A stretch of DNA of 64,000 nt from an uncultured delta proteobacterium (GTDB lineage: Bacteria > Desulfobacterota > Binatia > Binatales > Binataceae): positions 1,280,001 through 1,344,000 of the forward strand of contig CAWJET010000002.1 of the NCBI GenBank assembly GCA_963842085.1, in the 5' to 3' direction. The notes beneath the pieces were generated by a model that was not told the origin of the DNA, did not search any database, and was given only the letters and a program-made list of their open reading frames with translations. How positions within the stretch are numbered: the first letter of the stretch is position 1; the number at the start of each line of letters is the position of its first letter. The position numbers were made by a program, and so were the translations under genes. Shown piece after piece: positions 34,799 to 56,579 of this stretch.

Positions 34799-34921
34799 TT
34801 TAGGATGGATGGTGACAGTTCGAGGCGAGGTGGAAATCGCGTTGCTCCAGACAACAACAGCGGACTTCAAGGAAGAACGAATTACGTGAATCGAAATAGA
34901 CAATCACTGAGGTGGCAAACG

Positions 34922-36040: not shown

Positions 36041-36905
36041 GCGGCTGCATCAGAACACTCCCGAATGGCACCGCTGGCGCAGGCAAGGGATCGGGGCCAG
36101 CGATGCTCCGGTGATCATGGGCGAGACCGCCTTCAAGAGCCCAAGAACGCTCTGGTCGATAAAAACCGGGCGTACGCAGGAAGCTGCGGCGGGTCCGGCA
36201 GCGCGACGCGGCCGCGAACTGGAGCTTTTCGCCCGTAGGGCGTACGAGCGCCAAACCGGAATCCAGGTGGAGCCACTGTGCCTGGTCCACCAGGAGTTCG
36301 AGTGGATGCGGGCGTCGTTGGACGGGCTTAGCTTCGACGGCTCCACGCTCGTGGAGATCAAATGCCCGCTCAGCCCGCGCGATCGCACAGCAGCAGAGCA
36401 AGGTCGCATCCCTTCCCAGTACCATGCGCAGCTGCAGCATCAACTGGAGGTCTCCGGTGCAGCGCAGGCGCACTACTGGTCTTTCCACGGGACCGACGGA
36501 GTCCTGGTCGAAATACGTCCCGACCGGGAATACGCCAAGCGGCTGGTAGAGGCAGAGGCCGCGTTCTGGCAGCTGGTGCAGGAAAACCGCTGGCCCGAAT
36601 CGGCCGACGAGGAACTGGACCTGAGCGCGGAGCCAAAATGGCGTCACGCCGCGCTCCGCTACCGTGAAGTCAGGCTCCAGCTGGAACACGCAGCGGCCGA
36701 AGAGCACAGGCTGCGCGCAACGCTTGCGTGTATGGCGACCGCGCGGCGGACCTACGGCTGTGGCGTCGAAGTATTGAAGAGCTCGCGCAAGGGCGCGGTC
36801 GATTACTCGGCGGTGCCGGAGCTCCGCGGGGTCAACCTCGAACCCTACCGTAAACCGCCGGTGGCGGTTGTGAAGATCAACTTCATCGAGCCCAACCGGC
36901 AATAG
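36027..36905 (+). CDS. YqaJ/lambda-exonuclease family recombinase
   Basis: QNTPEWHRWRRQGIGASD, RASLDG, VEIKCP, YHAQLQHQL. Confidence 0.92.
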   Translation: MPRIERLHQNTPEWHRWRRQGIGASDAPVIMGETAFKSPRTLWSIKTGRTQEAAAGPAARRGRELELFARRAYERQTGIQVEPLCLVHQEFEWMRASLDGLSFDGSTLVEIKCPLSPRDRTAAEQGRIPSQYHAQLQHQLEVSGAAQAHYWSFHGTDGVLVEIRPDREYAKRLVEAEAAFWQLVQENRWPESADEELDLSAEPKWRHAALRYREVRLQLEHAAAEEHRLRATLACMATARRTYGCGVEVLKSSRKGAVDYSAVPELRGVNLEPYRKPPVAVVKINFIEPNRQ

Positions 36906-36911
36906 ACCGTC

Positions 36912-37409
36912 ATGCAGGAATTTTTCGGCTTTCGCAATTTCCGTCAGTTCGAGCGCACCCGCCGAGAGCTCAAGCTGCCCTACGAGCTGCTGAACGACCT
37001 CCGGTTCCGTCAGCTGCCCGATGCCCGCAAGGCCCACCTGCTCTGCCTGCTGCTGCTCTCGGCGCGCATGAACAATCTGCTGCCCAACAGTCCGGTCAAG
37101 CTGGAGCGGCTGATCGGGGCGACCGAGCCCTTGGACTTAAGCGCCTTCGCCTACTTCGTCGACTTTGCCGTGGTGGAACAGCCGAGCTGGCAGGACCGCC
37201 TTGCCAACCGGCGGGTGCCCGATGGCATGCGGGCAGCGGTGCTGGTGCGCGACGGCGGACGCTGTCGAAGATGCCGTAGGGCGATCCAGCTGGAAATGGA
37301 TCACATCGTTCCGGTCAGCAAGGGCGGCAAGACCGAGGAAGCGAACCTTCAGACGCTCTGCCGGCGCTGCAACCGGGCCAAGTCCAAAAAGCTGGCTCCC
37401 AGGTTCTGA
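36912..37409 (+). CDS. HNH endonuclease with phage replication-initiator-like N-terminus
   Basis: RDGGRCRRC..DHIVPVSKGG..NLQTLCRRCN; N-terminus KLPYELLND..F..LPD..KAHLLCLLLLS. Confidence 0.85.
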   Translation: MQEFFGFRNFRQFERTRRELKLPYELLNDLRFRQLPDARKAHLLCLLLLSARMNNLLPNSPVKLERLIGATEPLDLSAFAYFVDFAVVEQPSWQDRLANRRVPDGMRAAVLVRDGGRCRRCRRAIQLEMDHIVPVSKGGKTEEANLQTLCRRCNRAKSKKLAPRF

Positions 37410-37412
37410 AAG

Positions 37413-39149
37413 ATGGGTGCGGCAGGCGAATCATCCCGCAGCGTCGCGGTCGAGTTGGCGCTGCTGTTCCTGCGCGAACTCGAGCCAACGGTCGCAGAAG
37501 ATCCGGAGCGGTTGGTCTCGACTGAGGCGGTGCTTTCCTTTGCCGCGGTCAGGCGAGGCGATCCGCTCACTTGGCAACACTGGCGCAGGATTCTCGAGAA
37601 GTACGAAAAGGCGGACTTGCTCGAGCACATGCTCGGCGGTCCAGTGCCCACGGAAACCGGCGACGGCAGCTCCGCCGCGGACAGATTGATCGGGATGGTG
37701 CTCGATTCTGGAATCGAGTTCTTTCACGATCCTGACCAGCACGGCTGGGCTTGCGTTCGGGTCGATGGGCACTTCGAGAATCATCCCGTCCGCTCCCGCC
37801 CGTTCCAGCTCTTCCTGCTGCGGACCTATTACCGGGAGACAGGCAACAGCCCGGGCGCCCAAGCCATCCGCGCCACGCTGGAGCTGTTCGAAGCCAAAGC
37901 CCTGTTCGACGGTGAGGAATCACCCATCAATCTTCGGGTCGCAAGTCACCGCGGCAAGCTTTATCTCGACCTATGCGACCGCGCCTGGCGGGCCGTTGAG
38001 ATCGATGCCGAAGGGTGGCAGATAGTAAATCGACCGCCGCCAAGATTTCATCGCACCCGCGGCTCCCGTCCGCTGCCCGCACCCGAGCGCGGCGGCGCTG
38101 TTGACGAACTGCGCCGCTTCCTGAACGTCGACCAACAGGGCTGGACGCTGATCAAGGCCTTCCTGGTCGCGGCGCTACGTCCCGGTGTGCCCTGTCCTAT
38201 CCTGATCGCCAAGGGTGAGCAGGGAGCGGGCAAGACCACTGCATGCAGAATCATCAGCGCGCTGATCGACCCGCGCACCGGGGCACTGCGGGGCGTCCCC
38301 CGTGAAGTTCGCGATCTGACGGCGGCGGCCAGAAACTCCTGGCTCGTATGCTTCGATAACCTGAGCCACCTGCCAGAGGAACTTGCCGATGCAGCCTGCC
38401 GACTAGCCACCGGCGGCGGCTTCGGTGGCCGGGAGCTCTATAGCGATCATGACGAAGCGATCTTCGACGCTATCCGGCCCATCGTGTTCAATGCGATTCC
38501 CGACCTAGGGGGCGCGCGGCCCGACTTTCTCGATCGCGCAGTGATTGTGGAGTTGCTTGACATGAAGCCCGAGCTGCGCCGCGACGAGACGCGGTTCTGG
38601 CACGAATTCGAAGAGGTACGACCGCGCATCCTCGGTGCGCTGCTCGATGCCGTTGTGACCGGACTCGGGAACCTGCCGGCTGTCACGCTCGAGCAACCGC
38701 CGCGGATGGCCGACTTCGCTATCTGGGTAAAGGCTTGCGAGGAAAGCCTCGGCATGAAACCAGGAGAGGCCCTGGCTACCTACCAGTCCAACCGCACCGA
38801 GACGCACAATCTGGCACTTGAGTCCTCGCCGCTGTACGAACCGGTTGCCCTACTGGCCCGCGAGGGCTTTACTGGGACGGTCGCAGAACTGCATTCACGG
38901 CTCAACTTCATGATGAGCGAAAGTATGCGCCGCTCGGTACGCTGGCCCAAGGCGCCCAATGCGCTGAGCAACGCGCTGCGCCGCATGGCCAGCAACCTCC
39001 GCGCTGTCGGAGTCGAGATCCAGTTCAGCCGCGCCGATATCCGCGGTAGGCGCCTGGTATCCCTGGTCTCTGTTTCCGAGCCTCGGAAAAGATCGTCAGT
39101 GATCGTCAGTGACCGTCAGTACGAGTGCCCGCTTCTCAGCCCGTTTTGA
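37413..39149 (+). CDS. Mobile-element replicative helicase-like P-loop ATPase (no primase domain seen)
   Basis: Walker A GEQGAGKTT, Walker B VCFDNLS, RELYSD, RPDFLDR, PRMADF. Confidence 0.8.
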   Translation: MGAAGESSRSVAVELALLFLRELEPTVAEDPERLVSTEAVLSFAAVRRGDPLTWQHWRRILEKYEKADLLEHMLGGPVPTETGDGSSAADRLIGMVLDSGIEFFHDPDQHGWACVRVDGHFENHPVRSRPFQLFLLRTYYRETGNSPGAQAIRATLELFEAKALFDGEESPINLRVASHRGKLYLDLCDRAWRAVEIDAEGWQIVNRPPPRFHRTRGSRPLPAPERGGAVDELRRFLNVDQQGWTLIKAFLVAALRPGVPCPILIAKGEQGAGKTTACRIISALIDPRTGALRGVPREVRDLTAAARNSWLVCFDNLSHLPEELADAACRLATGGGFGGRELYSDHDEAIFDAIRPIVFNAIPDLGGARPDFLDRAVIVELLDMKPELRRDETRFWHEFEEVRPRILGALLDAVVTGLGNLPAVTLEQPPRMADFAIWVKACEESLGMKPGEALATYQSNRTETHNLALESSPLYEPVALLAREGFTGTVAELHSRLNFMMSESMRRSVRWPKAPNALSNALRRMASNLRAVGVEIQFSRADIRGRRLVSLVSVSEPRKRSSVIVSDRQYECPLLSPF

Positions 39150-39244
39150 CCGGGATTTCATCGGAAAATATTGGAAACACGCAGCGATTAGGCGATGGTC
39201 GTTCGTGACTATTACCCACTGACGATCACTGACGATCTTTTCCG
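39084..39244. repeat. Inverted iteron array, putative replication origin
   Basis: Perfect 27-bp IR (39084-39110 / 39218-39244) built from the 10-mer GATCGTCAGT: three copies on the left (one variant), two inverted on the right. Confidence 0.8.
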
Positions 39245-39614
39245 GGTTTCAAGAAATCGCCGAGCCCAATCTGCCGGAGGCTCTTTTGCCTTTTAAGCGG
39301 TCAAAGTTGCGGTCTCGGCGATCCACCGCCGCGATTCTGGATCGGTGAGCAGCTGGACGCCCAGAGGGGAAACGGCCAAGGGCTACGAGCTCAGCGTCGC
39401 TGCGCGACCTGCTCTCCCAGCACTCTACCAATGCGGACCCGTCACAGGCGTCACACTCCAACAGCTTGAACGGATTCATGCAAATCTGCGATGCGTCTCA
39501 AGTAGCGGATGTCACGCGCCCGGATTGAAGGAATGGTCCAGCGGCAATCATCAACGCATGGTCAACGTAACTCCGAAAGCTGGAGAAGACCAATCCCAGC
39601 CAGCGTGACGAAGA

Positions 39615-41405
39615 TCACGCGGCTAGTTCTTGAGCCTCGCGCATCGCGCGGAACCGACCTGTTGGCCGCGCAGACAGCGCGTCCCAGTCGCCGGATTCGA
39701 CGACCCTGCCGTCTTCAATCACGTAGATTAGATCCGCCCACCTAACGGTTGCGATGCGATGAGCGATGAGGATGGTGGTGGTTCCTGCGCCTAGCTTTTC
39801 AAGCGCACTGAGAACGCGAGCCTCGCTCGCGGAATCGAGGTTGTTGGTTGCCTCGTCGAGTACCAAAAGCCGCGGACGCCTCAGTATCGCACGGGCAAGC
39901 GCTATCCTTTGCCGTTCGCCCTGCGATAATGCCACGCCCCTATCGCCGATGACCGTATCGAGCCCCATTGGGAGCGCCGCCAAGAAGTCGTCAGCCGCCG
40001 CGATCGAAAGTGCTTCTCGAATGTCCGTTTCACTCGCACCCGCTCGCGCCCATTCAACGTTGGCGCGAAGCGTGTCGTGGAAGAGAAACGTATCCGGCGC
40101 AACGTAGCCCACACACTCGCGCCATCGGCGCGCCTCCACGGGTGTCAACTCAGCTCCGTCGATCCTGATGAAACCCTCGTCGGGCGCGATCAACCCCATA
40201 GCTAGATCCGCCAACGTGCTCTTTCCGGCTCCCGATGGACCGACCAGCGCGACGACGGTACCGGCGGGAATGACCAGCTCGGCGCGATATACGGCTGGCG
40301 CCCGGTCGCGGCTGTACGAGAACGAGACGCGATCGAAGCGGATCTCGCGGCGCAGATCCGGCGCCGGCGCGTTCGGTATCCCCGGTTCGGCCGCCGCGGC
40401 GCATCGCTGCTCCAAGGCGATCAAGTTTCCAAAAGAAGGTAGGAGACCAGCGGCCGATCGCAATTGCTGATGACCAGACATCAACCGCGGCATGACGCGC
40501 GCGAACAGCACTAGCAGGATCAGAATTGCGGCGGGCGGAACCGAGAGCACCCGGATCGCCGCGTAGAGCACCGCGCCCATGATCGCGGCCGAGCCTAGCT
40601 CGAACCACGCCGTAGCCGCGGCCTGCGCACCGATCGCCGCAAGGTCGGCAGCCATGAGTGCGCGGCTTGAGCGGGCGAAGATCGAGAAGTTGCGCTCTTC
40701 AGCTCCGCAAGCTTTTGCTGTCTTCAGGCTGTGTAGATGTTCGATCGTCACTGCATATAGCGAGCCCCTGAAATCGGACTGTCTCTGGCCCGCTTGTTCA
40801 ATCGCGCGAGTGCGCCCGCGGAGCGCGATTGCGAGCACCGCAGCGCAGCTCAACACCAGCAGCGTCATCGCAGCCGAGAGCCGAAGCGCGAGCGCGCAAT
40901 ACACAGCGGTCAACACGATATTTGCCGCAACAAGCATGATGTCGTAGGCTGCCTCTCTTACGCGATCGAGTTCGCCGGTCAGCGCATGGGTGAAATCCGA
41001 TGCTCGGCTGCGGCAGATGAACAGCCAGTTAGCGTTCGTGATCGCGCGGTAGAGCCGCAGCCGCATCTCGAGCACGAACTGTTGCTGGACCGCGTACATA
41101 GCCAAGCTCTGCAGCCGACCGACGATCGTTCGCAGCGCAATCAACACGACCAACATGGCGAGCAGAATCTCAAGTGACGGTGTGATCCCCACAGCAGAAA
41201 ATGCGCGTTCGATCGTGCGCGCGTAGCGGCCCGCTGAACCCTGCCCTGCAAGATCGAGCCCCGCGGCTTGCAGGGTTGGCAGCAGGAGCAGGATGCCAAG
41301 GCCTTCGGTCATCGAGAACGCGACCATAAGCGCCACGGCCGCGGTAAGGCGCCACCCGGCGGACCTGGCGAGCTCGCGCACAAACCTGAGCGCCGCGCGG
41401 TTCAT
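39615..41405 (-). CDS. ABC exporter (TMD+NBD), lasso D-type
   Basis: TM domain, GPSGAGKST, LSQGERQR, LVLDEAT; ATGA overlap with the upstream gene. Confidence 0.93.
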   Translation of the reverse strand: MNRAALRFVRELARSAGWRLTAAVALMVAFSMTEGLGILLLLPTLQAAGLDLAGQGSAGRYARTIERAFSAVGITPSLEILLAMLVVLIALRTIVGRLQSLAMYAVQQQFVLEMRLRLYRAITNANWLFICRSRASDFTHALTGELDRVREAAYDIMLVAANIVLTAVYCALALRLSAAMTLLVLSCAAVLAIALRGRTRAIEQAGQRQSDFRGSLYAVTIEHLHSLKTAKACGAEERNFSIFARSSRALMAADLAAIGAQAAATAWFELGSAAIMGAVLYAAIRVLSVPPAAILILLVLFARVMPRLMSGHQQLRSAAGLLPSFGNLIALEQRCAAAAEPGIPNAPAPDLRREIRFDRVSFSYSRDRAPAVYRAELVIPAGTVVALVGPSGAGKSTLADLAMGLIAPDEGFIRIDGAELTPVEARRWRECVGYVAPDTFLFHDTLRANVEWARAGASETDIREALSIAAADDFLAALPMGLDTVIGDRGVALSQGERQRIALARAILRRPRLLVLDEATNNLDSASEARVLSALEKLGAGTTTILIAHRIATVRWADLIYVIEDGRVVESGDWDALSARPTGRFRAMREAQELAA

Positions 41406-42613
41406 TGACGTGCGATCTGCGCAGTACGCGGCAAGATACGCGGTCCATGCTGAAGCAGGAGCCGCACTGGGCGCGTCAAGTAATAGGCCCAATAGAACGC
41501 TTTGGGCAGCGGCAGTGCTTCCCAGTCTTCGATCGTCGGGCGCAGGCCTCTGGTCAGCAAATACTGAAGGCGTAGTCCCAATCCTTCGATAGCGCTCAAT
41601 GGCACTACCCAGTCGCAGTATATCGATGGCAAAAGACCGGGCGCCGGAAAAAGCCGGCGGGCAATTCCGACGGCAAGCCGCATCACCCGGCCGTCGGAAG
41701 TAGATCGGCCTAGCACACCTTCAGGGACATGCCCACCTGCGAACGCTTGCGCAAGCACCGCACCAAGACGGAACATTCGCGTACATCCTAATCGCGCCAT
41801 CTCGTCTTCAGTTTGCTCCCAATCCGCCAAGCCTGTTGCGGTCAGCGCGGCGATGTCGCACATCGAGCGCAGCGACGCCCATCCCCATCCGTGCTTGGTC
41901 GCGTGCGCGATGCTGAAGATCAGGTGGTTGTCCGGGGCCAGCGTTTGCATCCACCGCCCATCGATCTCGACCACAACGCCGTTGCGCCAGACCGCTTCGT
42001 GGTTCGGACGATAGGGAAAATAGCTTGGCACCAGCGCTAGGTGCAGGTCGATCAGCAGACCGCCTTGCTTCTCGAACTGATCCTCGAAGGATCGGAAGAA
42101 ACCAAAATACGGAGCGCCGGATTGGTATCGCCGGGGGCGATAGCCCCGATCCGTAAGGATTCTGCCAACCTGCGGCAAGTCGCCTTGCCGGACGAGGATG
42201 TCCAGGTCGCCTGACTGACGGGCCGCGAGATCTCCATAGGCCTGAACTGCGAGCGCCGGTCCCTTGAGCGCGAGCATACCAAGCCCGGCTGCCGCGAACG
42301 CTTCATGAACCTCGACGAGCTCATGCGCCAGCCGGAGATGCGTGAGTGCGTTCGCCGCGTACCAGGCGTGAAGACGCGCGGCTATATCGGCTGGAACGCG
42401 GTCCGCGCAATGCGCGGCTAGGAAGCGATGCACGGGAGGTATGACGAAATGCCCCGCGGCCTCGGACGCAACTCGGTCCCAGTCGAGATCGCGGGCGGCA
42501 AGCGCAGTCGCGCGGGAACGCGACTCAGAGGTCGCAGGTGTCGAAATGCACGCAGCGATCAGCTGCCCCTCGAGCGGCAGCTCAGCACGCAGCGATTGGG
42601 CTATGTCATCCAT
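41402..42613 (-). CDS. Nucleotidyltransferase family protein (lasso N-type)
   Basis: LKGPALA..YGD...R.SGDLDILV, IDLH, HATKHGW; start uncertain. Confidence 0.9.
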   Translation of the reverse strand: MDDIAQSLRAELPLEGQLIAACISTPATSESRSRATALAARDLDWDRVASEAAGHFVIPPVHRFLAAHCADRVPADIAARLHAWYAANALTHLRLAHELVEVHEAFAAAGLGMLALKGPALAVQAYGDLAARQSGDLDILVRQGDLPQVGRILTDRGYRPRRYQSGAPYFGFFRSFEDQFEKQGGLLIDLHLALVPSYFPYRPNHEAVWRNGVVVEIDGRWMQTLAPDNHLIFSIAHATKHGWGWASLRSMCDIAALTATGLADWEQTEDEMARLGCTRMFRLGAVLAQAFAGGHVPEGVLGRSTSDGRVMRLAVGIARRLFPAPGLLPSIYCDWVVPLSAIEGLGLRLQYLLTRGLRPTIEDWEALPLPKAFYWAYYLTRPVRLLLQHGPRILPRTAQIARQ

Positions 42614-42659
42614 AAGAGGCAGGCGGTATGCCGATACGGCCGCCAGGTTACCGACCGGT

Positions 42660-43133
42660 TCAGTGGCGGGCGTCGTACTCCGTACTACGAAAGAGCGCAG
42701 CATAGCGGCCCGATTCGAACGCGCCGCCGATCACGATTCCCCCTTTGTACTCGACCCACGCGTGGGCAGCGAGTTGGCCCGTCGGACTCTTTGACGCGCC
42801 TATCCGCAACTCGCTGGTCAAACCGAGCCGGCTCAGCATACGCTGTACCGCTATCGCACGCACCAGACAGTTGCGCCCGCCCGGAACGCACGCGCTTGCG
42901 GCCGCCACGGCCCGTGCAACACGAGCCACAAGCAGCGCTGGATCGTGGTTGTACGTGCTGTTTCGAGCGGGTGCGCCAGCCCAATCGCGCACCCGAGCGA
43001 ACGGCAGCAGAAGCAGCCTTGCTCGTGCTGCAAGCACGGCGAGGAACGCTCTGGGTAGTATTATCCACTCCGCTACGGATAATGTGCGAATCCTTCGAAT
43101 GCGGGCAAGCACGGGGCTCATGCGGGTGTTCAT
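42660..43133 (-). CDS. Lasso peptide leader peptidase B2 (transglutaminase-like)
   Basis: NCLVRA, LRIG, AHAWVE catalytic motifs. Confidence 0.93.
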   Translation of the reverse strand: MNTRMSPVLARIRRIRTLSVAEWIILPRAFLAVLAARARLLLLPFARVRDWAGAPARNSTYNHDPALLVARVARAVAAASACVPGGRNCLVRAIAVQRMLSRLGLTSELRIGASKSPTGQLAAHAWVEYKGGIVIGGAFESGRYAALFRSTEYDARH

Positions 43134-43155
43134 TGCGCCACGCGCAGGTCGAGCT

Positions 43156-44187
43156 TCAGCGCCCTGCTGAGAGCTTGGCACTCTCACGATTGCCGCCGCT
43201 CATATCCGCGAGCACCATCTCGCGTACCGCGGCTAACGCGGTGAAGTCGTTCGGAACTACGAGCTTCTTTACCGGCACTTTCGCGACGACCTGCTTGAGA
43301 AATCGAAGTTTGTGGAGATTGGCGGCGCGATCAGTTGATTCGAATAACCACGACGCTGACGCCAGTTCGACCAAGGATTCGGCCCAAGACATGTGCTCGA
43401 CCTTTGGCGCATGGGTCTGGTCCGCATCGTTGTCCAGCCGGTTCAATCGGTATATCCACTTGAGCGGCACCGATTTGGCCGCCAAACTGGCCCTGGGGTC
43501 GGCGGCGTCGTGCCGGCTCAAGCGAATAATCCGCCCGAGCGGCTGCGGTTGGGCGTTTGAATGGAGATCAGGCGCGCATCGCTCGGAGTTGTAGCCTGCG
43601 ACGGCGTCCGACCGAGCCGAGTCGATTCTCAGCGCTTCGACGCTTTCATTCGACAGCCACGCGCCTGGATAGCCGGGCGTGAGAACGATCTGGCCGCTGC
43701 CACTCAGACTCAGCACGACCCAGTCGTCGCCGAGCAGCGGGAAGCCCGCAAGTGCAAAGCTTGCCGCGAGCGTCGATTTTCCGGTACCTCCCGGGCCGAT
43801 GAATGCGCACGCTCCATAGTCGGTCAAAAAGGCGGTCGCGTGGATCGACTTGATTCCGATCAGATCGAGAACACCCGGGATGACGCCATTGAGAAGCCGA
43901 TGTCGCAGTACCTTGGGAAAAATTTCAGAGTGTACTCTGCAATACTCTATCGCGCGCACCAGACAATTGCGCCAACCGGGAACGCGCGCGCTTGCGGCTG
44001 CCACGGCCCGTCCAACACGCGCCGCAAGCAGCGCAGGTGCAGCAGCCCAATCGCGCACGCGCGCAAATGCCAGCCACAGCAGCCTCGCTCGCACGGCAAG
44101 CACGGCGAGCAGGGCCCCGGGCACCGGCTTGCGGTCAGCTTCGGATAATGCGCGGACCTTTCGGATCCGGGCGAAGGCGGTTCTCAT
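43156..44187 (-). CDS. Chimera: partial lasso B2 N-terminus fused in frame to an HPr-kinase-like domain
   Basis: N-terminus copies B2 up to NCLVRAI; then IHATA, GPGGTGKSTLA, LGDD, homologous to 44225-45223. Confidence 0.8.
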   Translation of the reverse strand: MRTAFARIRKVRALSEADRKPVPGALLAVLAVRARLLWLAFARVRDWAAAPALLAARVGRAVAAASARVPGWRNCLVRAIEYCRVHSEIFPKVLRHRLLNGVIPGVLDLIGIKSIHATAFLTDYGACAFIGPGGTGKSTLAASFALAGFPLLGDDWVVLSLSGSGQIVLTPGYPGAWLSNESVEALRIDSARSDAVAGYNSERCAPDLHSNAQPQPLGRIIRLSRHDAADPRASLAAKSVPLKWIYRLNRLDNDADQTHAPKVEHMSWAESLVELASASWLFESTDRAANLHKLRFLKQVVAKVPVKKLVVPNDFTALAAVREMVLADMSGGNRESAKLSAGR

Positions 44188-44224
44188 TCCAACGACCAGT
44201 GTGTCGGCACCTGTAGTCTGAGCG

Positions 44225-45223
44225 TCAGCACACTTCGAGGAATCCCACGCTATCACGCTCGTGACCGCTCATATCCGCGAGCACCATCTCACGTGCCGCG
44301 GGTAACGCGGCGAAGTCGTTCGGAACTACGAGCTTCTTTATTGGCACTTTCGCGACGACCTGCTCGAGGAATCGGAATTGGCGGAGATTGGCAAAGCGAT
44401 CAGTTGGATTGAATCGATACGACGCTGACGCCAGCTCGATCAACGATTCGGCTCGAGACATGCGCTCGATCCTTGGCGCATAGGTCTGGTCCGCGACGTT
44501 GTCCGTCAGCCGGTTCAATCGGTATATTTGTTTGAGCGGCAGCGATTCGGTCGCGAAATTTCGCCTCAGGTCCGGAACCCGACGTTTCCAATCGTCGTCG
44601 CCGATAGTTTCCGATCGGGCCGGATAGATGCCGAGTGCGTCAAGGCTGTCACCCCACAGACGCGTGCCCGCGTAGCCAGGCGTCAGGACAATCTCTAGGG
44701 CGCTGCAAAGGACGACGCAATCGTCGCCGAGAAGGAGCGCTCCGCTGCGCACAAGACTTGTGGCCAAGGTGGACTTGCCGGCGCCGGTCGGACCGAGGAA
44801 CGCGCATGCGCCGCCATCGATTGCAACCGCCGTCGCATGAATCGCCTCGAAGCCACGGAGATCGAGCACGCGGGGAATTACGGCGTCCAATAAGAGATGC
44901 CGCAGCATATCGCGCGAAGTCGCATCGCAAAGCCCGCAGCACTCAATTTCATCACCGCCTTCGCTGACGAAGAAATCCGCCAGTCCGGGAAACCGCAACA
45001 GGTAGCCACCGGGGGTAGTCGCACAGATTAGCCACTCCTGCCCGTCGATATTGTCGTGACGTAAAAAGACCGCATCGGGATCGAATTCGATCAGTCTTGC
45101 AATCTGGAGGCGTACGCGCATCACAGCTTGCGGCTCATGCTCGCTGCCCGAGTACGGCGTTAGTTCCGGAAGAAGCACGTCGGAGTCGAGGCGGATTCCG
45201 TACACTGAATACGACGGCATCAT
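44225..45223 (-). CDS. HPr-kinase-like lasso peptide kinase
   Basis: YSVYGIRLDSD, IHATAV, GPTGAGKSTLA, LGDD. Confidence 0.88.
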   Translation of the reverse strand: MMPSYSVYGIRLDSDVLLPELTPYSGSEHEPQAVMRVRLQIARLIEFDPDAVFLRHDNIDGQEWLICATTPGGYLLRFPGLADFFVSEGGDEIECCGLCDATSRDMLRHLLLDAVIPRVLDLRGFEAIHATAVAIDGGACAFLGPTGAGKSTLATSLVRSGALLLGDDCVVLCSALEIVLTPGYAGTRLWGDSLDALGIYPARSETIGDDDWKRRVPDLRRNFATESLPLKQIYRLNRLTDNVADQTYAPRIERMSRAESLIELASASYRFNPTDRFANLRQFRFLEQVVAKVPIKKLVVPNDFAALPAAREMVLADMSGHERDSVGFLEVC

Positions 45224-45471
45224 TGAAGATCGATCTGGTCGAGAGACGCCCGCAGGCGCTGCTGGAACCTCCAGCGCAGATTTCGTTCAACCGGAAGAAT
45301 CACGCGCGTTCCCGTCGGCTCGGCCTCGTGAGAATTCTCGAGAGACCCGGAAAAAGTGCGGCTGTAGTCATGTCTCCTAGGTATCTTGAGCGCGGAATCC
45401 CGCGAGTCGGGACCCTTGTGGGGGTTAAGGCGCTTTGCGGCATACCCCCGTGCGTTGCGCCCAAGGTACGT

Positions 45472-45660
45472 TTACGGAAAGCCCGGAAACTGAAAGCCCT
45501 GCTTTTTGGTCATCCTGTCTGATCTTCTACCCGCACTGCCAGCGGTGAGCTTCGCAACGTCACCGTACCTCACCAAAGCGGGCTTTACATACAGCGGGCG
45601 AGGACTGGCGCAGTATTTCCCGATCGCAGGCGACGAACTGCTGTTGCTTTCGGGCTTCAT
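45472..45660 (-). CDS. Lasso peptide precursor A
   Basis: AGGAG RBS; leader YVKPAL..YGDVAKLT(-2)A; core G1-SAGRRS-D8-RMTKKQGFQFPGFP. Confidence 0.9.
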   Translation of the reverse strand: MKPESNSSSSPAIGKYCASPRPLYVKPALVRYGDVAKLTAGSAGRRSDRMTKKQGFQFPGFP

Positions 45661-45940
45661 CCAAAATTCTCCTGCACCCGGTCAAATATAGTCAACTGAG
45701 TTAGCGAATTCCAGTCAGGGAAATCAATCAAATCGTCCGCTTCATGCCGCTAGTCATTGCCAAAGCTCCGTCGGCTAGCCCACTCCATAGTTCGAAATGA
45801 CGTGTGCCACGAATGGCTGCGCCTCGCGGGCATGTGAAACAGATCGGAATGCAATTCGTAAACCCGGCGCTCGATCTCCGCTCGTTCGCCGCGTCGGGTC
45901 GCACAGGTCAACGACCCAGCGCGCGCGGGCCACCACGGAG

Positions 45941-47932
45941 TCAGCACAAAGTAGGGGGCCTGTCTGGCGAGACTAGAGACATGCTCGAATCGCGATTTGT
46001 TTCGGTCGTTGCAATGCGGGCGAAGCCGCCCGAGAAGTGTCGAATCAGCATCTCAACTCCAAACAAGGCAAATCCGGTCCACATGTAATCGGTGCATCGA
46101 CAGTCGTGCGACTGATAGAATCGCCAGGCGGCTTCGTGCGCCTGCTTCAGCCGAGCCTGACTCACCCAGCCCATCTCCGCAATCTCCAGGCGATCGATCA
46201 GTGAATCACCAGTTTGCTTGACCGCTCTCATCATCAGGTCGCTGAAGTCACCCTTCGTGGTTCGCTTTCTGATCCGCTCGGGCAAGAGTTCCTTCATCGC
46301 ATGGCGCATGAGGAGCTTCGAAACTCCCTGGTTCCAGCGGTGCTCTTCAGCGAGCCCAGAGACAAATTCGATCACGCGGCGATCGCAAAATGGATGACGG
46401 TAATCAATACCGAGCCGCCCGGCGTCCCGCTCGCCTCCTTCAACCGCGTAGGTCAGCCATCCGTCGCGCATCAGGTACCACATCGCCCAGACCGCTTGTG
46501 GCTTTTCGTCCCACTCTCCAAGCGCCCGGCGCGCACGGTCCTCCAGATCAAAGCGCCTGGCAAAGGCCGGCTCGAGCCATGAGAGCCACGCAAATGAGGG
46601 GCTTTCGCCGCGGTTGAGCATTCGCCTGACGCGTTCTCGCGCGAACGCCGGCACGAACGGCCATACCGCCGAGCGAAAGACGACATCGATGAACCCGCGC
46701 TGGACCTCGCCTGACCCTATATTCTTTCTCAGCGATCGCAGGGCGTGGGCGAACCTCACCGGATGAACCCCGCGGACCAAAGCAGCGAGATCGCCGGTCC
46801 CTCCATCCATCGTGTGATCCCCGCCGTGACCGCTCAGCGCAACGCGCAGTCCCCGCGCAGCGACGTTCTGCATGAGGGTTTGCCCCATTGCGTAATTGGG
46901 ATACGGCGGCAATTCGAGGTGGCGATGCACGTAATCAGCGAACCAGGCGGCGTCCGGCTCGAATGCGTGGCATTCGTGGGTCGAGAAGTCGCACGCGCGC
47001 TCGACTTCGGCAATATATTCGCGCTCGTCCGCGTCAGGATCGGTATAATTCAGCGAGAATGGCTCGGCGCGATTGCTGACAATACCCCGGCGCATCAGAT
47101 CGTGTCCGATGCATACGATTGACGAGGAATCGAGGCCGCCGCTCAGATCGGCCGCAACATCACCCGGAGAGCGCATCCGGCATCGGACCGCCTCGACCAG
47201 GGTCTCGCGGAGGGCCGAAGCGGTATCGTCGTAAGTGGCAAAGCGAAGCGCCTTCGCTGCAGCCGGATCGTAGTACTCGCGATGCCTCATTCCCGAGCTG
47301 TCTACCGTGAGGCATGCCCCGCCTTCGAGTCTGAATATGTTGCGTATTACAGTCTCTCGACGCGTGAATGGACCGCCAGCTAGGCACTCTGCAAGAAACG
47401 CCTCGTTGAGCTTGCGGCCGATCGCATGGTCCTGAAGAATCTGGATCAGATCGGATGCGCACAGGAATCTTCTGCCGTCGAAGAAGTAGTGCAGCGGCTT
47501 GAAACCGAGCGGATCGCGCGCGCACAGCATCCTGCGTCTGCGGCCGTCCCATACCACGATCGCAAAATCGCCGAGCAAGCGGTTCCAGGCTCCTTCGTCC
47601 CAGAGCTCGAAGCATCGTCCGACGAGCTCTACATCGGTCGGTTCATCCAAGCTCGCGCCCGAAGATTCCAGTTCACGCAAGAGTTCCCTTCGGTTGTCGA
47701 TGCGCCCGTCGAAGATAACTCGGATGGTCGCGTCCGCGTTGACCCAGGGCTGGTCCTCGCGCACCGCCTCGGGTGTAGTGGCAAACTTCCGAAACGCCAT
47801 GCCCGCCGCCCCTTCGGTCCAGAACGCTGCACCGTCGGGACCGCGATCGCACACGGAGTCCACCATCGCGCGTAGCATAGCCCGGTCGGCCGGCCGCTCG
47901 TCGACGTTGAATATACCTGCGATCGCACTCAT
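45941..47932 (-). CDS. Lasso cyclase C (asparagine-synthetase-like)
   Basis: MSAIAG (no N-terminal Cys), ARDPLG.KPL, DLSGGLDSS, SGHGGD, HPFCD, R.TK. Confidence 0.92.
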   Translation of the reverse strand: MSAIAGIFNVDERPADRAMLRAMVDSVCDRGPDGAAFWTEGAAGMAFRKFATTPEAVREDQPWVNADATIRVIFDGRIDNRRELLRELESSGASLDEPTDVELVGRCFELWDEGAWNRLLGDFAIVVWDGRRRRMLCARDPLGFKPLHYFFDGRRFLCASDLIQILQDHAIGRKLNEAFLAECLAGGPFTRRETVIRNIFRLEGGACLTVDSSGMRHREYYDPAAAKALRFATYDDTASALRETLVEAVRCRMRSPGDVAADLSGGLDSSSIVCIGHDLMRRGIVSNRAEPFSLNYTDPDADEREYIAEVERACDFSTHECHAFEPDAAWFADYVHRHLELPPYPNYAMGQTLMQNVAARGLRVALSGHGGDHTMDGGTGDLAALVRGVHPVRFAHALRSLRKNIGSGEVQRGFIDVVFRSAVWPFVPAFARERVRRMLNRGESPSFAWLSWLEPAFARRFDLEDRARRALGEWDEKPQAVWAMWYLMRDGWLTYAVEGGERDAGRLGIDYRHPFCDRRVIEFVSGLAEEHRWNQGVSKLLMRHAMKELLPERIRKRTTKGDFSDLMMRAVKQTGDSLIDRLEIAEMGWVSQARLKQAHEAAWRFYQSHDCRCTDYMWTGFALFGVEMLIRHFSGGFARIATTETNRDSSMSLVSPDRPPTLC

Positions 47933-47956
47933 TGGCTGTTTCAGGAGGCGCGCGAT

Positions 47957-48226
47957 TTAAGCTGCAGTCTTGATCAGACCTTCGTTCGAGAGATCACTTA
48001 TGAGTTCGTCGAAATCGCGCTCAATCTGGTCGCGGGAAACGTTGTACTGGGTGGCTAGGGATTGCAAAATCTCTTCGCGTCTTCGGCCTGCCGCGATCAA
48101 GGTCCAGATACGCGCGCCGACCTGATTGAGACCGAAATAGATGCCAGTATCCAACTTTAGGATCACCACCTCATCATCGAGGTCGGTCCAGACCACGTCG
48201 TCGACAACTCGAAGGACATTCGTCAT
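47957..48226 (-). CDS. PqqD-family RiPP recognition element (lasso B1)
   Basis: DDEVVIL.LDTGIYFGLNQVGARIW..I...L...YNV....ERD..ELI..L..EGLI. Confidence 0.93.
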   Translation of the reverse strand: MTNVLRVVDDVVWTDLDDEVVILKLDTGIYFGLNQVGARIWTLIAAGRRREEILQSLATQYNVSRDQIERDFDELISDLSNEGLIKTAA

Positions 48227-48278
48227 GGCAGCAGAACCAGGTTGCCCTGAGTTGATTCGAGGATTGAATCGTCCACAC

Positions 48279-50132
48279 TCAGATCGGACGGGCCGTTCCG
48301 ATCGGCAAGGCACCGGGCGCTGCGCCCCCGCCGGAAGGTTCACGTGGCACGACCTCCTGCGTCTCGTTCAGTTGCATCGAGAATCTCCGCACAGGTATTC
48401 CGTGCGTCCGCCCAAAGCGGTGAAGTCTTTCCATCTGCCCGGGAGCGAGCTCTTCGTCCGCAACGATGATCTCGGTGAACGGCACCCGCGCGTGGATGGA
48501 CTCGATGTCCTCAGGTGTGCCCAGCACTTCCTCTCCGTGCAAGAGTTTGCCGTGCTTGAATGCATCCTCATCGACGAATCCAACAATCCGGGCCGAGCGT
48601 GTGCGCGCCTTCAACACGAATTCTGCGGCCACGGTTCCGATTTCTCCAGCTCCTACCACTAGTACCCTGTCAGTGACGGTCGCGAGGCGGCTGATCAGCC
48701 TGCGCAACACCTGGAACGACATCCGCGTCGCGACCAAAAGGTTGACGAGCAGCAGCGCGAACAGCACCGCGATTGATCCGGAATGCCTGATGGGCAGGAA
48801 ATTGGATCCGATTGCCACGAGGCTTGCAGCGAGCATCGCGCCGCCGGCGAACCGGAAGCTGTCCGTGAGACCCGCGTGGCGCCAGATTCCGCGATAAACG
48901 CCCGCGAGCAGAAATGCCGGGTACGTCAGCACGATCACCCACGGCAGCCCGCGCATCATCGATGCGAGCACCTCGGGAGTGAGGTTGAAATCGAGCCGCA
49001 ACGCGCACGCACCGAAATAAGCAGCGCTGATTAGCGCGATGTCCATCGTCGCATCAGCAATTCGTCGTTTGTAGCCGAGGGAAAGAATGTACCGTGCGAC
49101 CCCCTGAAGATAGCCGTATGCGACGCCCGGGGGATTCGCGTCGAAGATCAAATCGATCATGAAGAGCGCGATCACCGCCGCAGCGAGTGCGATAAACGGC
49201 AGCGCTGCGACAACGTCAGGGTGCGGCAACAGGTTAGCCGCAACCGCGCATACCGCAGTGACCGTCGCCACCGCCCAGATCGACGCGACAGTCCTCCGCT
49301 CCGAAAGTCCGAGCGAGAGCAGGCGATCGTGTACGTGCTCCAACCCATGCCGCGAAATCGCTTTCCCCGTCGCCAGTCGGGATGCCGTCACGATTCCCGT
49401 GTCGAGCAGTGGCACCAGCATCACCAGCACTGGGAAAACCCAAAGAGTGAGTCGCGTGTTCGTCGCGAGCGCTCCTCCTTGAAGCGCCAGTACTCCGAGC
49501 ATGTACCCGAGCGGGAGAGCGCCCGCGTCGCCCATAAAGATCGACGCGGGATAGATATTGAAGATCAGAAATCCCCCCAACGCTCCGGCGACGGCGAGGC
49601 TCGGCGCGGTTACCGCGGGCACTCCTCGCACGGTGCCGATCACCGCAATCGCAGCGGCGACCGTAAGTCCGATGCCCGCCGCCAGACCGTCAAGTCCGTC
49701 GACGAGGTTGAACGCGTTAGTCGCGGCGACCAGCCAGAAGATGCTGATCCCTACACCCAGAAATTGCCAAGGAGCGAACGCGTAACGGGGCAACGCGAAC
49801 ATAGCCGCCCACGTAACTATCGCGAGCTGGCATAACAATTTCTGCCGCGGGCTCAGCACCAGCGCATCGTCTACCAGACCGACTGCCAGCATCGCGCCGG
49901 CGCCTATCGCCACCCACGAGACCAGGTGGCTGGTCACCGCGAGGGCGACGACGATCGAGACAATAATCGAAATGCCACCCGTAGCAGGAACTCGTGCTTC
50001 GCTGAGCGGTGAAGCTACTTTCGCCGTGATGCCAATCCACCGCCCAAAGCGCATCGCAGCGGGCATCGTAACAATCGCCGCTAAGAACGCGATTGCTCCC
50101 GTCGTCCACGGATTTGTCAGTAGGGCGAGCAT
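48279..50132 (-). CDS. WecA/MraY-like undecaprenyl-phosphate sugar-phosphotransferase with C-terminal Rossmann-like domain
   Basis: GLVDD, NAFNLVDGLDGL, IFMGDAG, HVHDRL; then VLVVGAGEIG..VGFVDED. Confidence 0.9.
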   Translation of the reverse strand: MLALLTNPWTTGAIAFLAAIVTMPAAMRFGRWIGITAKVASPLSEARVPATGGISIIVSIVVALAVTSHLVSWVAIGAGAMLAVGLVDDALVLSPRQKLLCQLAIVTWAAMFALPRYAFAPWQFLGVGISIFWLVAATNAFNLVDGLDGLAAGIGLTVAAAIAVIGTVRGVPAVTAPSLAVAGALGGFLIFNIYPASIFMGDAGALPLGYMLGVLALQGGALATNTRLTLWVFPVLVMLVPLLDTGIVTASRLATGKAISRHGLEHVHDRLLSLGLSERRTVASIWAVATVTAVCAVAANLLPHPDVVAALPFIALAAAVIALFMIDLIFDANPPGVAYGYLQGVARYILSLGYKRRIADATMDIALISAAYFGACALRLDFNLTPEVLASMMRGLPWVIVLTYPAFLLAGVYRGIWRHAGLTDSFRFAGGAMLAASLVAIGSNFLPIRHSGSIAVLFALLLVNLLVATRMSFQVLRRLISRLATVTDRVLVVGAGEIGTVAAEFVLKARTRSARIVGFVDEDAFKHGKLLHGEEVLGTPEDIESIHARVPFTEIIVADEELAPGQMERLHRFGRTHGIPVRRFSMQLNETQEVVPREPSGGGAAPGALPIGTARPI

Positions 50133-50428
50133 TGATAAACTTTGTCAAAGCTTGTGTTTTATTCTCAAAGCATAGAATTACATGTAAAACTGTTGAATAT
50201 CAATAAGTTTAGCCAGATAAATCCGTTTAACCGTTGAATTTGACTTGCACTCCTGCTCCCGACAAGGCCGCGGCTCGGACCACCTGGGCGATACTGTCGT
50301 TCGCCTGCGAAGCTGCTGGAATGATCCGCGGCGAGGTTAGCTTGCTAGCGCTAGGGCGAATCTCACCAAGAAAACCCAATGCGATATTAATTTCGTAGCG
50401 AAAGAGACAGACTTCCGGAGTGCGGCGA

Positions 50429-51430
50429 TCAGGTAGGAGAGGATCCGGCTTCCTGCAGGAACTTTTCACGAACCTGCTGTTCAATCCAGGCGTAAGTGCG
50501 CGCGAGTCCCTCCTCCAGGGAAATCTCCGGCTCCCAGTTCAAGACCTCGCGCAGCCTAGTGTTGTCGGAATTGCGTCCGCGTACACCCTGAGGACCGGGC
50601 ACATGCTTGCGGCTGATTCGAATGCCCGCGATGCCCGCCACAATTCCGGCAAGTTCGTTTATCGTAACCATCCGGTCCTGGCCAAGATTGAGGGGCTCGT
50701 GGTAGTCCGATCGCATCAACTTTGAGATCCCGGTGATACAGTCGTCGATATAGCAGAACGAGCGGGTCTGCTCGCCGTCTCCCCAGATCTCCACTTCGTG
50801 ATTCCCCGTCAGCTTTGCGTGCGCTACTTTGCGACTCAATGCAGCAGGTGCCTTTTCGCGCCCGCCTTCCCAGGTGCCGTAGGGGCCGAACACATTATGG
50901 AAGCGGACTATCCGCGTCTCGATTCCGTAGTCTTCGCGATAGTGGGTGCACAATCGCTCGGTGATCAGCTTCTCCCACCCATAGGCGTCTTGCGGCTGCG
51001 CGGGGTAAGCGTCTTGCTCCTTAAGAGGAGCAACGTCGGTTTCGCTCTGCTTGTACTCCGGATAGACACAGGCCGACGAGCTGTACAAATAGCGGCGTAC
51101 GTCGTTGCGACGAGCAGCCTCCAGGGTCTGAAAATTGATCATCGCGTTGTTGTAGAGGATCTGCGAGTGATGGGAGGAGATGAAACCCATTCCGCCCATG
51201 TCCGCGGCGAGCGCATAGACCTCGTCGATTCCGCGCGTCGCCGCGACACAGTTCTCCCAGCTGCGAAGATCCAGGAGCAGAAATTCGTCGCAATCCGACG
51301 GAAGGAATTCCGGCTTCTTGATGTCCACGCCGCGGACCCAGTATCCGTCGCGTTTGAGGCGACTGGTCAGATGACTGCCGATGAATCCGCCCGCTCCGGT
51401 AACGAGAACTTTCGTCGTAATAAGTGTCAC
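50429..51430 (-). CDS. NAD-dependent epimerase, GDP-mannose 3,5-epimerase-like
   Basis: GAGGFIG, LAADMGGMGFI, SSSACVYP, YGWEK, GGREKAPAA. Confidence 0.9.
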   Translation of the reverse strand: MTLITTKVLVTGAGGFIGSHLTSRLKRDGYWVRGVDIKKPEFLPSDCDEFLLLDLRSWENCVAATRGIDEVYALAADMGGMGFISSHHSQILYNNAMINFQTLEAARRNDVRRYLYSSSACVYPEYKQSETDVAPLKEQDAYPAQPQDAYGWEKLITERLCTHYREDYGIETRIVRFHNVFGPYGTWEGGREKAPAALSRKVAHAKLTGNHEVEIWGDGEQTRSFCYIDDCITGISKLMRSDYHEPLNLGQDRMVTINELAGIVAGIAGIRISRKHVPGPQGVRGRNSDNTRLREVLNWEPEISLEEGLARTYAWIEQQVREKFLQEAGSSPT

Positions 51431-51506
51431 AACGGTTGATTTTACGTCGCGCTGCGTGAACTGAAATTCTATCAAGCAGCGCCATCGGCGCCAGTAATGC
51501 GTCCGC

Positions 51507-52346
51507 TCAAAGTTCCGTGCGCTCGGCGGCGGCAGCCTGCCTCAAGCGAATCTCAACTGTCTCGGCGAGCGCACGGTAGAGAAACCGGGGGCCGTCGAGC
51601 AGGTCGCGCCGCCACAGCTTTGCTGGTTCCATAGCAAGCCGCCACAGCCACTCGAGACCAGCGCCGCCAACCCATCCAGGCGCCCGTCTCACCTGTCCGC
51701 TGACAAGGCGTAACGCTGCTCCAACCCCGACAACCACCGGAACCCGGAGCGCGTCTAGGTTTCGATGTATCCACCACTCCTGTTTTGGCAGGCCGAGGCC
51801 GACCCATAGCACGTGCGGACGTGCTTCGTTTATCTGCTCCACTATCGCCCGCTCTTCTTCGAGTTCCAACTCTCGGAAGGGCGGCGATAGGGTTCCAACT
51901 ACGCGATGGCCGGGATGCTGCCGCTCGAACCTCTCCTTCAGCGCGGCGAGCGTATCGTCGGTGTCGCCATAGAAAAAGCTCCGGTAGCCCGTCTGATTGG
52001 CGCGCGCGGCGAAGCGCACCAGCAATTCGGGCCCCGGAACCCGGCCCGGGAGCGGCATGCCGCGCAGCTGCGATATCCAGACCGGAGCAATCCCGTCGGG
52101 GCAGAAGAGATCCGCAGAGTTGAGCACGTCGCGCAGCCGCGGGTTCCTGTGTGCCTCCCAGATTCCATGAAATCCCGTGGCGACGACGAAGCGGCAGCGC
52201 TCCTCGGATAGTTCGATCCAGCGCTCGATGCGATTCAGCGCTTCATCGATAGTCACCCTGGAAACCGAGCTTCCCAGAATTTCGATCGACGGGGGTCGCT
52301 CTGGGCACTCGGCTCGGGACGTTTCGCTGCTGGCGATGGAACTCAT
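51507..52346 (-). CDS. WecB/TagA/CpsF glycosyltransferase
   Basis: PDG, RVPGPEL, SPPFR, VGLGLPKQE, GLEWLWRL..EP.KLWRR. Confidence 0.93.
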   Translation of the reverse strand: MSSIASSETSRAECPERPPSIEILGSSVSRVTIDEALNRIERWIELSEERCRFVVATGFHGIWEAHRNPRLRDVLNSADLFCPDGIAPVWISQLRGMPLPGRVPGPELLVRFAARANQTGYRSFFYGDTDDTLAALKERFERQHPGHRVVGTLSPPFRELELEEERAIVEQINEARPHVLWVGLGLPKQEWWIHRNLDALRVPVVVGVGAALRLVSGQVRRAPGWVGGAGLEWLWRLAMEPAKLWRRDLLDGPRFLYRALAETVEIRLRQAAAAERTEL

Positions 52347-52447
52347 CCGTCGTCAGCTCCGTGAGACAATGCGAAAGTCTTTCGGTATAGGCACTGACAA
52401 CAGAACCTTACCCGATGCGGTCGACGCGAAGTTTCTTATCCCAATCA

Positions 52448-55152: not shown

Positions 55153-55250
55153 TGCCTCTGCTCACCGCCTGAGCAACGTCGCGTGGCACGGTTCTTTCGA
55201 TGGTTCAACACCATGTCAACTCCGAGCACGCGAGGTTGAACTGTCCAGAG

Positions 55251-56162: not shown

Positions 56163-56267
56163 CAGCAGGAGCCTTTCGGCAATATGCGAGATCTCAGCCC
56201 GCTAAGTGTCCGGTACATAATTTCGTCGGCCATTTCGACGCAGTTGCCCAGCGCGCGAGACGCCACA

Positions 56268-56579
56268 CTAGTGTCCTGAGTTAGAAGTCCGCGTAATAAA
56301 AATGGGAGTAATCGAGGCCCCTCTTGCCTCATCCTGAGCGCGTGAGCCGGAGCCCTGAGGCGAAGCCGAACGGGGAAGGATCTCGCACGGTCCTCCGGGC
56401 GTGTCGCTGGGCGTGGGGGGTCTGACGCGCGCGGGAGCGCGCGGGATCCTTCACGGAGTTTACCCTGGAGGCGCACTGCGGGCCCCTTCGCTGCGCTCAG
56501 GGCCTTCGGCTGCGCCGAAGGGTTCAGGATGACGGGGCACGGGTCGTTTTGTAAACCAATTTCCAACTCGCCACACTAG
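56268..56579. mobile_element. IS630-type MITE enclosing a REP-like palindrome
   Basis: Ends CTAGTGTCCTGAGTTAGAAG / CTAGTGTGGCGAGTTGGAAA; internal TCATCCTGAGC...GGATC...GATCCTTC...CAGGATGAC. Confidence 0.7.

Follow-up and report, generated by a model that had tools for sequence, protein, structure and literature searches.

A class II lasso cluster with two HprK-like kinase genes

We analyzed a lasso peptide gene cluster carried on a 64,000-nucleotide (nt) stretch of DNA, here called the window, from an uncultured delta proteobacterium of the Binataceae (contig CAWJET010000002.1, positions 1,280,001 to 1,344,000). The full cluster has the gene order B1-C-A-K1-K2-B2-N-D, with all genes on the minus strand, and its precursor gene, A, lies between the gene for a lasso cyclase and the genes for two HprK-like kinases. 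An initial annotation, made from the sequence alone, had pointed out that these kinases adjoin a precursor without a C-terminal Ser, and we found this to be so. The genes B1, B2 and C, which make up the class II lasso set, are encoded together, and the lasso peptide gene cluster is genuine.

Precursor A (45472..45660) is an ATG-initiated open reading frame (ORF) of 62 amino acids (aa) with a TAA stop, and a Shine-Dalgarno-like AGGAGA can be read at 45668..45673, 7 nt 5′ of the ATG. The 40-aa leader (45541..45660) contains Y-V-K-P-A-L, a YxxPxL motif, at positions −17 to −12, followed by Thr at −2 and Ala at −1. The NCBIfam model NF033521 (lasso_leader_L3) covers residues 24–42 of A with a score of 25.9 bits, where 19 is the cut-off; this match and the translation confirm the YxxPxL leader, the Thr at −2 and the 22-aa core of the initial annotation. 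The core (45472..45540, 22 aa plus stop) reads GSAGRRSDRMTKKQGFQFPGFP, exactly as first given, with a cationic middle, an aromatic tail and a terminal Pro. Because Asp8 is the sole Asp or Glu of the core, the Gly1–Asp8 ring proposed at the outset, an eight-membered one, is the only macrolactam that A can form; the tail behind it comprises 14 residues. Hydroxyl residues are limited to Ser2, Ser7 and Thr11, again as had been claimed, and position 3 is Ala. A thus combines the leader motif with a possible ring from residue 1 to an acidic residue at positions 7–9, the features of a class II lasso precursor. Near the N-terminus of the leader is the stretch S-N-S-S-S-S with its run of four Ser (window 45619-45648), which is the same in the variant described below. 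A search with a leader hidden Markov model (HMM), built from leaders selected by regular expression (regex), recovered A as the sole precursor-like segment between window positions 36000..52000. A search for terminators and structured RNA gave no terminator-like sites between A and K1 (fold z-score −0.96), and the lone promoter-like match near A overlaps the ribosome-binding site and is unconvincing.

A homologue search with A returned a single candidate, A itself (1/1), and so no alignment of a precursor family. The 90% cluster of A did hold one variant, P0272, of 65 aa, with a leader identical to that of A. Its core is GSAGGRSDRMTKKSGYPGSPGFPGP; up to Lys13 only position 5 differs from A, and the tail is rebuilt and longer, again ending in Pro. 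The initial annotation had named conserved Ser positions in homologous precursors as a check, and Ser2, Ser7 and Thr11 are all retained in P0272. The comparison thereby reveals the portion of the core that is constrained. P0272 goes with P0002, a homologue of K1 at 98% identity, as the longest recorded contig of each is 35,505. To the reading that the C-terminal Ser is missing only because the sequence is erroneous or truncated or the stop codon wrong, we give almost no credence, and nothing was found that favours it. The identical 62-aa peptide is recorded on four contigs in the protein collection, the precursors of all ten other loci in the kinase group of K1 (see below) likewise lack a terminal Ser, and the worry about a wrong C-terminus is removed by P0272, since this diverged variant also ends in Pro.

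Upstream of A, the cyclase gene C (45941..47932) encodes an asparagine-synthase-like lasso macrolactam cyclase of 663 aa, with Pfam matches to Asn_synthase (1.8e-41) and GATase_7 and 393 bits against NCBIfam lass_lactam_cya, under the cut-off of 525. B1 (47957..48226), read as 89 aa from an internal ATG, is a PqqD-like recognition element for peptides that are made on the ribosome and modified after translation (RiPPs). It scores 65.2 bits against Pfam PqqD and 58.8 bits against NCBIfam lasso_PqqD_Bac, under the cut-off of 80, and it aligns with the B1 matches from 17 loci; the GTG-start mechanical ORF reaches 48343 and would overlap the upstream glycosyltransferase gene. Downstream of the kinase genes, B2 (42660..43121) encodes a transglutaminase-like leader peptidase, matched by Pfam Transglut_core3 at 73.5 bits and by NCBIfam lasso_biosyn_B2 at 92.8 bits (cut-off 33). 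We place its start at Met23, by parallel with the N-terminus of K2, which gives 153 aa; the mechanical ORF reaches 43187. N (41402..42703) is a 433-aa ORF for a nucleotidyltransferase of the NTP_transf_5 family (Pfam PF14907, 186.4 bits) whose true start may be an internal Met, and its homologues occupy the same B2-N-D position in Firmicutes loci. The ABC exporter gene D (39615..41405; Pfam ABC_tran and ABC_membrane) likely starts at the ATG at 41405, as judged from its translation and coordinates, and the TTG-start mechanical ORF reaches 41492. With this start, the N stop and the D start overlap as ATGA at 41402-41405, a sequence arrangement that suggests translational coupling.

HprK-like kinases and the precursors encoded beside them

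K1 (44225..45223) is a full-length HprK-like kinase of 332 aa, recognized by its motif, with weak matches to Hpr_kinase_C and HprK_rel_A. It carries the motif residues H129, G144, G147, G149, K150, S151, D167 and D168. In an alignment of 25 kinase sequences that includes K2, H129, G149, K150, S151, T152, D167 and D168 are invariant (25/25), and G144 and G147, both kept by K2, are nearly so. The spacing of H, G..G.GKS and DD in K1 and K2 equals that in the residue list of BsfK from Bradymonas sediminis FA350 (H148, G163, G166, G168, K169, S170, D186 and D187), of which six of the eight, all but G166 and G168, are reported as mutationally important (Duan et al. 2023, PMC10368454). Compared with the PDB, the family profile matched HPr kinase/phosphorylase (1jb1, E 3e-7) over the P-loop catalytic core, H..GxGKS..DD; the alignment spans only about 60 residues, and the window kinases differ at their N- and C-termini and in their RiPP context. 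The close relatives of K1 are solely metagenome-derived proteins, one at 98% identity (P0002) and the next at 64% and lower (P0003–P0009, 57–64%). A K1-type profile search of representative proteins recovered 25,824 at E ≤1e-3 and 3,015 at E ≤1e-30. Many kinases in the collection, P0002, P0004 and P0017 among them, bear the Pfam tag PF27840.

Published work describes two kinds of site for such kinases. PadeK, ThcoK, SyanK and PsmK target the C-terminal Ser of the linear precursor, as the initial annotation had stated for the PadeK/ThcoK type, and in pseudomycoidin the phosphate receives a hexose through PsmN, a nucleotidyltransferase whose gene lies between B2 and D (PMC8498205). BsfK instead phosphorylates the ring Ser3 of BsfA, a precursor that ends in Asp; BsfB1 speeds this reaction, and the Bsf cluster also has a nucleotidyltransferase (PMC10368454). 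LppK places several phosphates on core Ser3 of linear relatives (Nat Commun 2026, PMC13381572), in a paper that names ‘paeninodin and Bsf subfamilies’. Our literature search found no further work on BsfK or on other phosphorylation sites, and the accessible text of a 2026 review of interlocked peptides still names C-terminal phosphorylation only.

A scan of species-representative genomes with a narrower kinase alignment yielded 80 loci; the best of these matched at 41% identity, and most of them carry lasso genes around the kinase. Precursors were sought among stop-to-stop segments, using a leader/ring regex that is blind to the last residue and a leader HMM made from the regex matches. They were chosen by eye in 45 of the 80 loci, so that 46 rows are labelled when the window is included. 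Two leader styles occur in these loci, Y..P.L..YG.....T. and W..P.[LI]......T. We built a quick tree of 82 kinase rows (the 80 loci, K1, and K2 without its N-terminal stub) and a careful tree of 73, from which seven long-branch rows (L023, L056, L060, L064, L065, L066 and L077) and two short ones (L072 and L079) were dropped. The careful tree joins K1 and K2 as sisters (support 100/99); the pair belongs to an 8-row clade that also holds L001-L006 (100/97) and to a 10-row clade (97/88). The same 8-row clade is present in the quick tree, with a Shimodaira–Hasegawa-like approximate likelihood ratio (SH-aLRT) support of 97. BsfK, PadeK, ThcoK and SyanK are not in the tree; loci from Paenibacillus, Cohnella and Neobacillus stand in for the latter three.

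The ending of the precursor differs between the kinase clades. In the K1-side group, which comprises 16 rows of the quick tree (SH-aLRT 86), none of the 11 labelled precursors ends in Ser and all 11 have Ser or Thr at core positions 2–5. In the large paeninodin-like clade, to which the Paenibacillus, Cohnella and Neobacillus loci belong, 23/24 labelled precursors end in Ser and 7/24 have Ser or Thr at positions 2–5, and among 11 labelled intermediate rows both counts are 5/11. The C-terminal-Ser label changes 5 times on the tree, compared with a mean of 14.4 after shuffling, and none of 500 shuffles was as low. Absence of a C-terminal Ser is thus, by the tree and these counts, the norm for the kinase clade of K1. 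The expectation of the initial annotation that a kinase-containing cluster should have a C-terminal Ser is outdated, given the use of Ser3 by BsfK and LppK; the rule stems from a single kinase clade (PadeK, ThcoK, SyanK and PsmK). Within the K1-side group, 10/10 loci encode the precursor upstream of the kinase and on its strand.

The only labelled precursor of the large clade with another ending is that of L069, a Bacteroidales metagenome-assembled genome (MAG), at 11303-11458, which ends in Asn and has Thr2-Ser3 in the ring. L042, the chromosome of an Alphaproteobacteria MAG, has nine regex-matching precursor-like ORFs over about 12 kb (~6979-19483) at one kinase locus, with near-identical W.RP.I leaders and differing cores that all end in Ser. 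Residue 1 of a lasso core is usually Gly, Ala, Ser or Cys; judged by leader spacing, cores in these kinase-associated loci apparently start with Thr in L001 (2525-2659), L006 (3013-3225), L007 (8415-8654), L011 (12908-13141), L057 (8535-8753), L071 (13373-13579) and L037 (12868-13092), and with Val in L016 (9020-9220 and 9271-9738) and L080 (10845-11021), with an Asp or Glu at position 8-10. Three Sphingomonadales precursors that end in Ser, in L073 (10843-10995), L075 (10667-10882) and again L080, have Ile, possibly Val, at −2, which matches the Sphingomonadales leaders reported in PMC10368454.

Of the published systems, the Bsf cluster (BsfA/B1/B2/C/D/K/N) shares with the window split B1 and B2 genes, an HprK-like kinase with the motif H..G..G.GKS..DD, and a nucleotidyltransferase. 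The precursors, with BsfA read from the codon-optimized gene printed in PMC10368454, have in common Y..P.L at −17 to −12, a Gly1–Asp8 ring, Gly4 and the lack of a terminal Ser. The window therefore has one trait of the Bsf subfamily, in that a kinase and a nucleotidyltransferase accompany split B1/B2 and a precursor whose last residue is not Ser. Two others are absent from A: it has Ala3, with Ser2 adjacent, where the subfamily has Ser or Thr at core position 3 (phosphorylated Ser3 in Bsf), and Thr at −2 where the subfamily has Ile or Val (Ile in Bsf), a trait that may define the Bradymonadales rather than a chemistry. Two kinase genes and a cationic aromatic tail further set the window apart from Bsf. 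With the paeninodin-type systems (PadeK, ThcoK, SyanK) and pseudomycoidin (PsmK/PsmN) the window shares an HprK-like kinase, predicted in our case, acting on a linear precursor. Both also encode an ABC exporter and have a nucleotidyltransferase gene between B2 and D. Paeninodin-type precursors, however, end in Ser and have W..P leaders, and their kinases belong with the C-terminal-Ser clusters of the other large clade; the window has neither the C-terminal Ser nor a kinase that groups there. The LPP clusters (LppK/LppB/LppS/LppD/LppN) resemble it in their HprK-like kinase, discrete RiPP recognition element, NTP-transferase and exporter, and in LPP the phosphorylation site, core Ser3, is near the leader junction. 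They lack a cyclase and B2, use a signal-peptidase-like leader peptidase and make a linear product, whereas the window has both C and B2. Taken together, the cluster is not of the paeninodin type; it would work like the Bsf subfamily, though without Ser/Thr3 and Ile at −2.

A chimeric second kinase

K2 (43156..44187) is a chimeric kinase of 343 aa if read from Met24, a start placed after the database member P0279; the mechanical ORF has 366 aa and reaches 44256. Over its first ~80 residues it shares 60% identity with the B2 N-terminus, including the GRNC segment, which we take to be the site of the catalytic Cys. The rest is 53% identical to residues 77-325 of K1, and the junction reads ...LVRAI|EYC.... 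A repeat search found the corresponding direct repeats in the DNA: the 3′ end of K2 (43181..43435) is 85% identical to the 3′ end of K1 (44250..44504), and the 5′ part of B2 pairs with the 5′ part of K2 (42851-42941 with 43947-44037, and 42967-43055 with 44033-44121), all at a spacing of 1066-1096 nt. One tandem duplication running from mid-K to mid-B2 explains the order K1, B2′::′K, B2.

The architecture is common to P0010, P0011 and P0071, which are 55-71% identical to K2; P0071 unites stub, kinase core and a complete B2 in one 484-aa protein. Kept in at least four diverged relatives, the chimeric form is old and conserved. The Cys of the stub is replaced by Gly in P0010 and by Phe in P0071, and since it is not conserved among the relatives, the B2-like stub of K2 is not a protease. 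The window K2 and its 96% variant have, in addition, a 25-aa internal duplication, in which the motif PL.RI.RL.R occurs twice, and the substitutions C169W, R188W, W190S, D192E, K213E and R215C at positions invariant in 13 K1-type sequences. Because of this duplication and the six substitutions, the window K2 may be altered, whether neofunctionalized or decaying, yet its ATP-site motif is intact.

These changes bear on whether the kinases could be vestigial or the cluster silent, in which case any product would be a cationic lasso peptide without modification. The published record offers parallels: the Bsf cluster was silent, no host having yielded a mature lasso peptide from it (PMC10368454), and LppN was inactive in a heterologous host (PMC13381572). 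We nevertheless consider loss of function quite improbable, as K1 is intact with all motif residues and has relatives at 98% and 57-64% identity, the A-K gene order is kept in 10/10 K1-side loci, and every K1-side precursor retains an N-proximal hydroxyl (11/11).

Structural modelling points to contact between the kinase and B1. A model of the K2-B1 complex scored 0.66, compared with 0.02 for the best control; the mark that it reached is attained by 116/157 solved complexes and by 2/215 mismatched pairs. The runs agreed in at least 56% of contacts, with a partner predicted local distance difference test (pLDDT) value of at least 84. In the modelled interface, K2 residues 267-301 (P0279 numbering), in the conserved C-terminal helices, face B1 residues 10-33, which are taken to be the beta-sheet of B1, and 24 of the 35 residues of this K2 segment are identical in K1 by alignment count. 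The model, which concerns predicted binding only, fits the measured B1 dependence of BsfK; B1 assistance is thus measured for Bsf and modelled for the window. A role for the B2-like stub as the B1-docking element was not supported, the confident interface being in the C-terminal helices, with residues that the model does not name uncertain rather than excluded.

The likely phosphorylation site and a proposed pathway

The genes and motifs, the clade membership, the precursor pattern and the conservation of Ser2, Ser7 and Thr11 are established in this analysis. From them we conclude, with a probability of about 0.6, that the window carries a class II lasso cluster of the phosphate-modified kind, with kinases from a branch for which a C-terminal Ser is not the target. 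The most likely outcome, by analogy with BsfK and LppK, would be that a ring serine, preferably Ser2, is phosphorylated in dependence on the leader and B1 and then decorated by the nucleotidyltransferase. The initial annotation had suggested ring or loop phosphorylation of a new regiochemistry; a ring site is indeed plausible, but with BsfK and LppK as precedents it would not be of a new kind; the exact position is the most that could be new, core position 3 of A being Ala.

Several points weigh against this conclusion. Ser2 as the site is an extrapolation, since position 3 is Ala, BsfK is strictly selective for position 3 (PMC10368454) and LppK is reported not to accept Thr (PMC13381572); the silence of the Bsf cluster counts on the same side. 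L005, whose core is similar to that of the window, also has Ala at core position 3, and L009, an intermediate row, is without any ring hydroxyl. The scores of K1 against Hpr_kinase_C (21 bits, cut-off 33.3) and HprK_rel_A (27.5, cut-off 200) are below threshold. BsfK itself was absent among the 120 listed profile matches and the 150 listed representatives, and its motif pattern was found in 0/271 proteins. The precursors were hand-picked from regex candidates, and 35 of the 80 loci gave none. The complex model was made for K2 and not for K1, with our own alignments, and has a chain 1 pLDDT of 60-64. The Fisher values for the clade contrasts, 3e-8 and 1e-4, are inflated by kinship because independent events are few, a test of independent pairs for lack of a C-terminal Ser against Ser or Thr at positions 2–5 finding 4-5 pairs (p ~1). 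The C-terminal/N-proximal pattern holds as a description of the clades and does not prove co-evolution.

The same system could also act at another position, either at Ser7, beside Asp8, or at Thr11 in the loop, or with K1 and K2 on different sites. Both residues are conserved in P0272 just as Ser2 is, L002 also has Ser7, and two kinase genes are present. We regard this as possible but rather unlikely. Both mapped non-C-terminal sites are at core position 3, beside the cleavage site (PMC10368454, PMC13381572), and Ser or Thr at positions 2–5 is found in 11/11 K1-side precursors, compared with ring position 7 in the window and L002 only. The window K2, moreover, has lost residues invariant in K1-type kinases. 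A further-reaching version, in which K1 and K2 both dock on B1 and place phosphates on two ring or loop hydroxyls (Ser2 and Ser7 or Thr11), neither at core position 3 nor at the C-terminus, would yield a doubly modified, nucleotidyl- or glycosyl-extended cationic lasso; we think it unlikely.

The cluster is flanked by other genes on both sides. On the B1 side it is adjoined by a minus-strand polysaccharide-synthesis cluster (window 48279-63985) with a WecA/GT4-type initiating transferase, an epimerase, WecG, a Wzy-like polymerase, several GT1/GT2 transferases and methyltransferases. Beside D is a prophage-like module (window 33614-39149) encoding a CI-type repressor, an ERF recombinase, a YqaJ exonuclease, an HNH endonuclease and a 578-aa protein without a Pfam match. 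The conserved neighbourhood of related loci excludes both. A kinase that acts on a sugar, on another protein or on the Ser-rich N-terminus of the leader would be in keeping with the lack of a C-terminal Ser, with Ala at position 3, with the run of four Ser in the leader and with the polysaccharide genes at 48.3-64 kb. We hold this to be highly improbable. The closest solved relatives, the HPr kinase/phosphorylases, are protein-serine kinases; the characterized RiPP-cluster members of the kinase family all phosphorylate the core, as described in the accessible parts of PMC8498205, PMC10368454 and PMC13381572; and the model puts the kinase on B1, which binds the leader. The polysaccharide genes, moreover, are outside the neighbourhood that related loci conserve. 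The sugar substrate that the initial annotation had offered as an alternative is unsupported: the HprK motif of protein kinases is kept, the precursor gene is directly upstream of the kinase in related loci, and the fold model supports binding of the kinase to B1.

Phosphorylation of the core by the leader-dependent route would proceed as follows. B1 would bind the YxxPxL leader of the 62-aa precursor, and K1, docked on B1, would phosphorylate the linear core near the leader/core junction, most likely at Ser2, with Ser7 and Thr11 as the other conserved candidates. N may then build on the phosphate, in the way that PsmN adds hexose in pseudomycoidin. B2 would cut the leader off after Thr−2/Ala−1, C would form the Gly1–Asp8 isopeptide ring around the aromatic, proline-rich tail, and D would export a strongly cationic lasso peptide.

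The missing C-terminal Ser, with which this analysis is concerned, is ordinary for the clade; the noteworthy parts are a core with Ala3 and Ser2 and a second kinase of conserved chimeric form. As the known site, position 3, is Ala, A lends itself to studying how such kinases select the residue that they modify. The chimeric kinase shows how a new architecture of tailoring enzyme can arise when a tandem duplication spans a gene boundary. For genome mining, the locus and its relatives correct a rule of thumb that is still in use, by which a lasso cluster with a kinase is taken to imply a C-terminal phosphoserine. They offer a testable replacement, in which kinase clade and leader type (Y..P.L..YG vs W..P) go with the position of the hydroxyl. 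Should it hold, prediction of sites by clade would be useful, the kinase family being large. If K1 and K2 do act together on two hydroxyls, the kinase tree would predict regiochemistry, C-terminal or N-proximal, for thousands of uncharacterized clusters.

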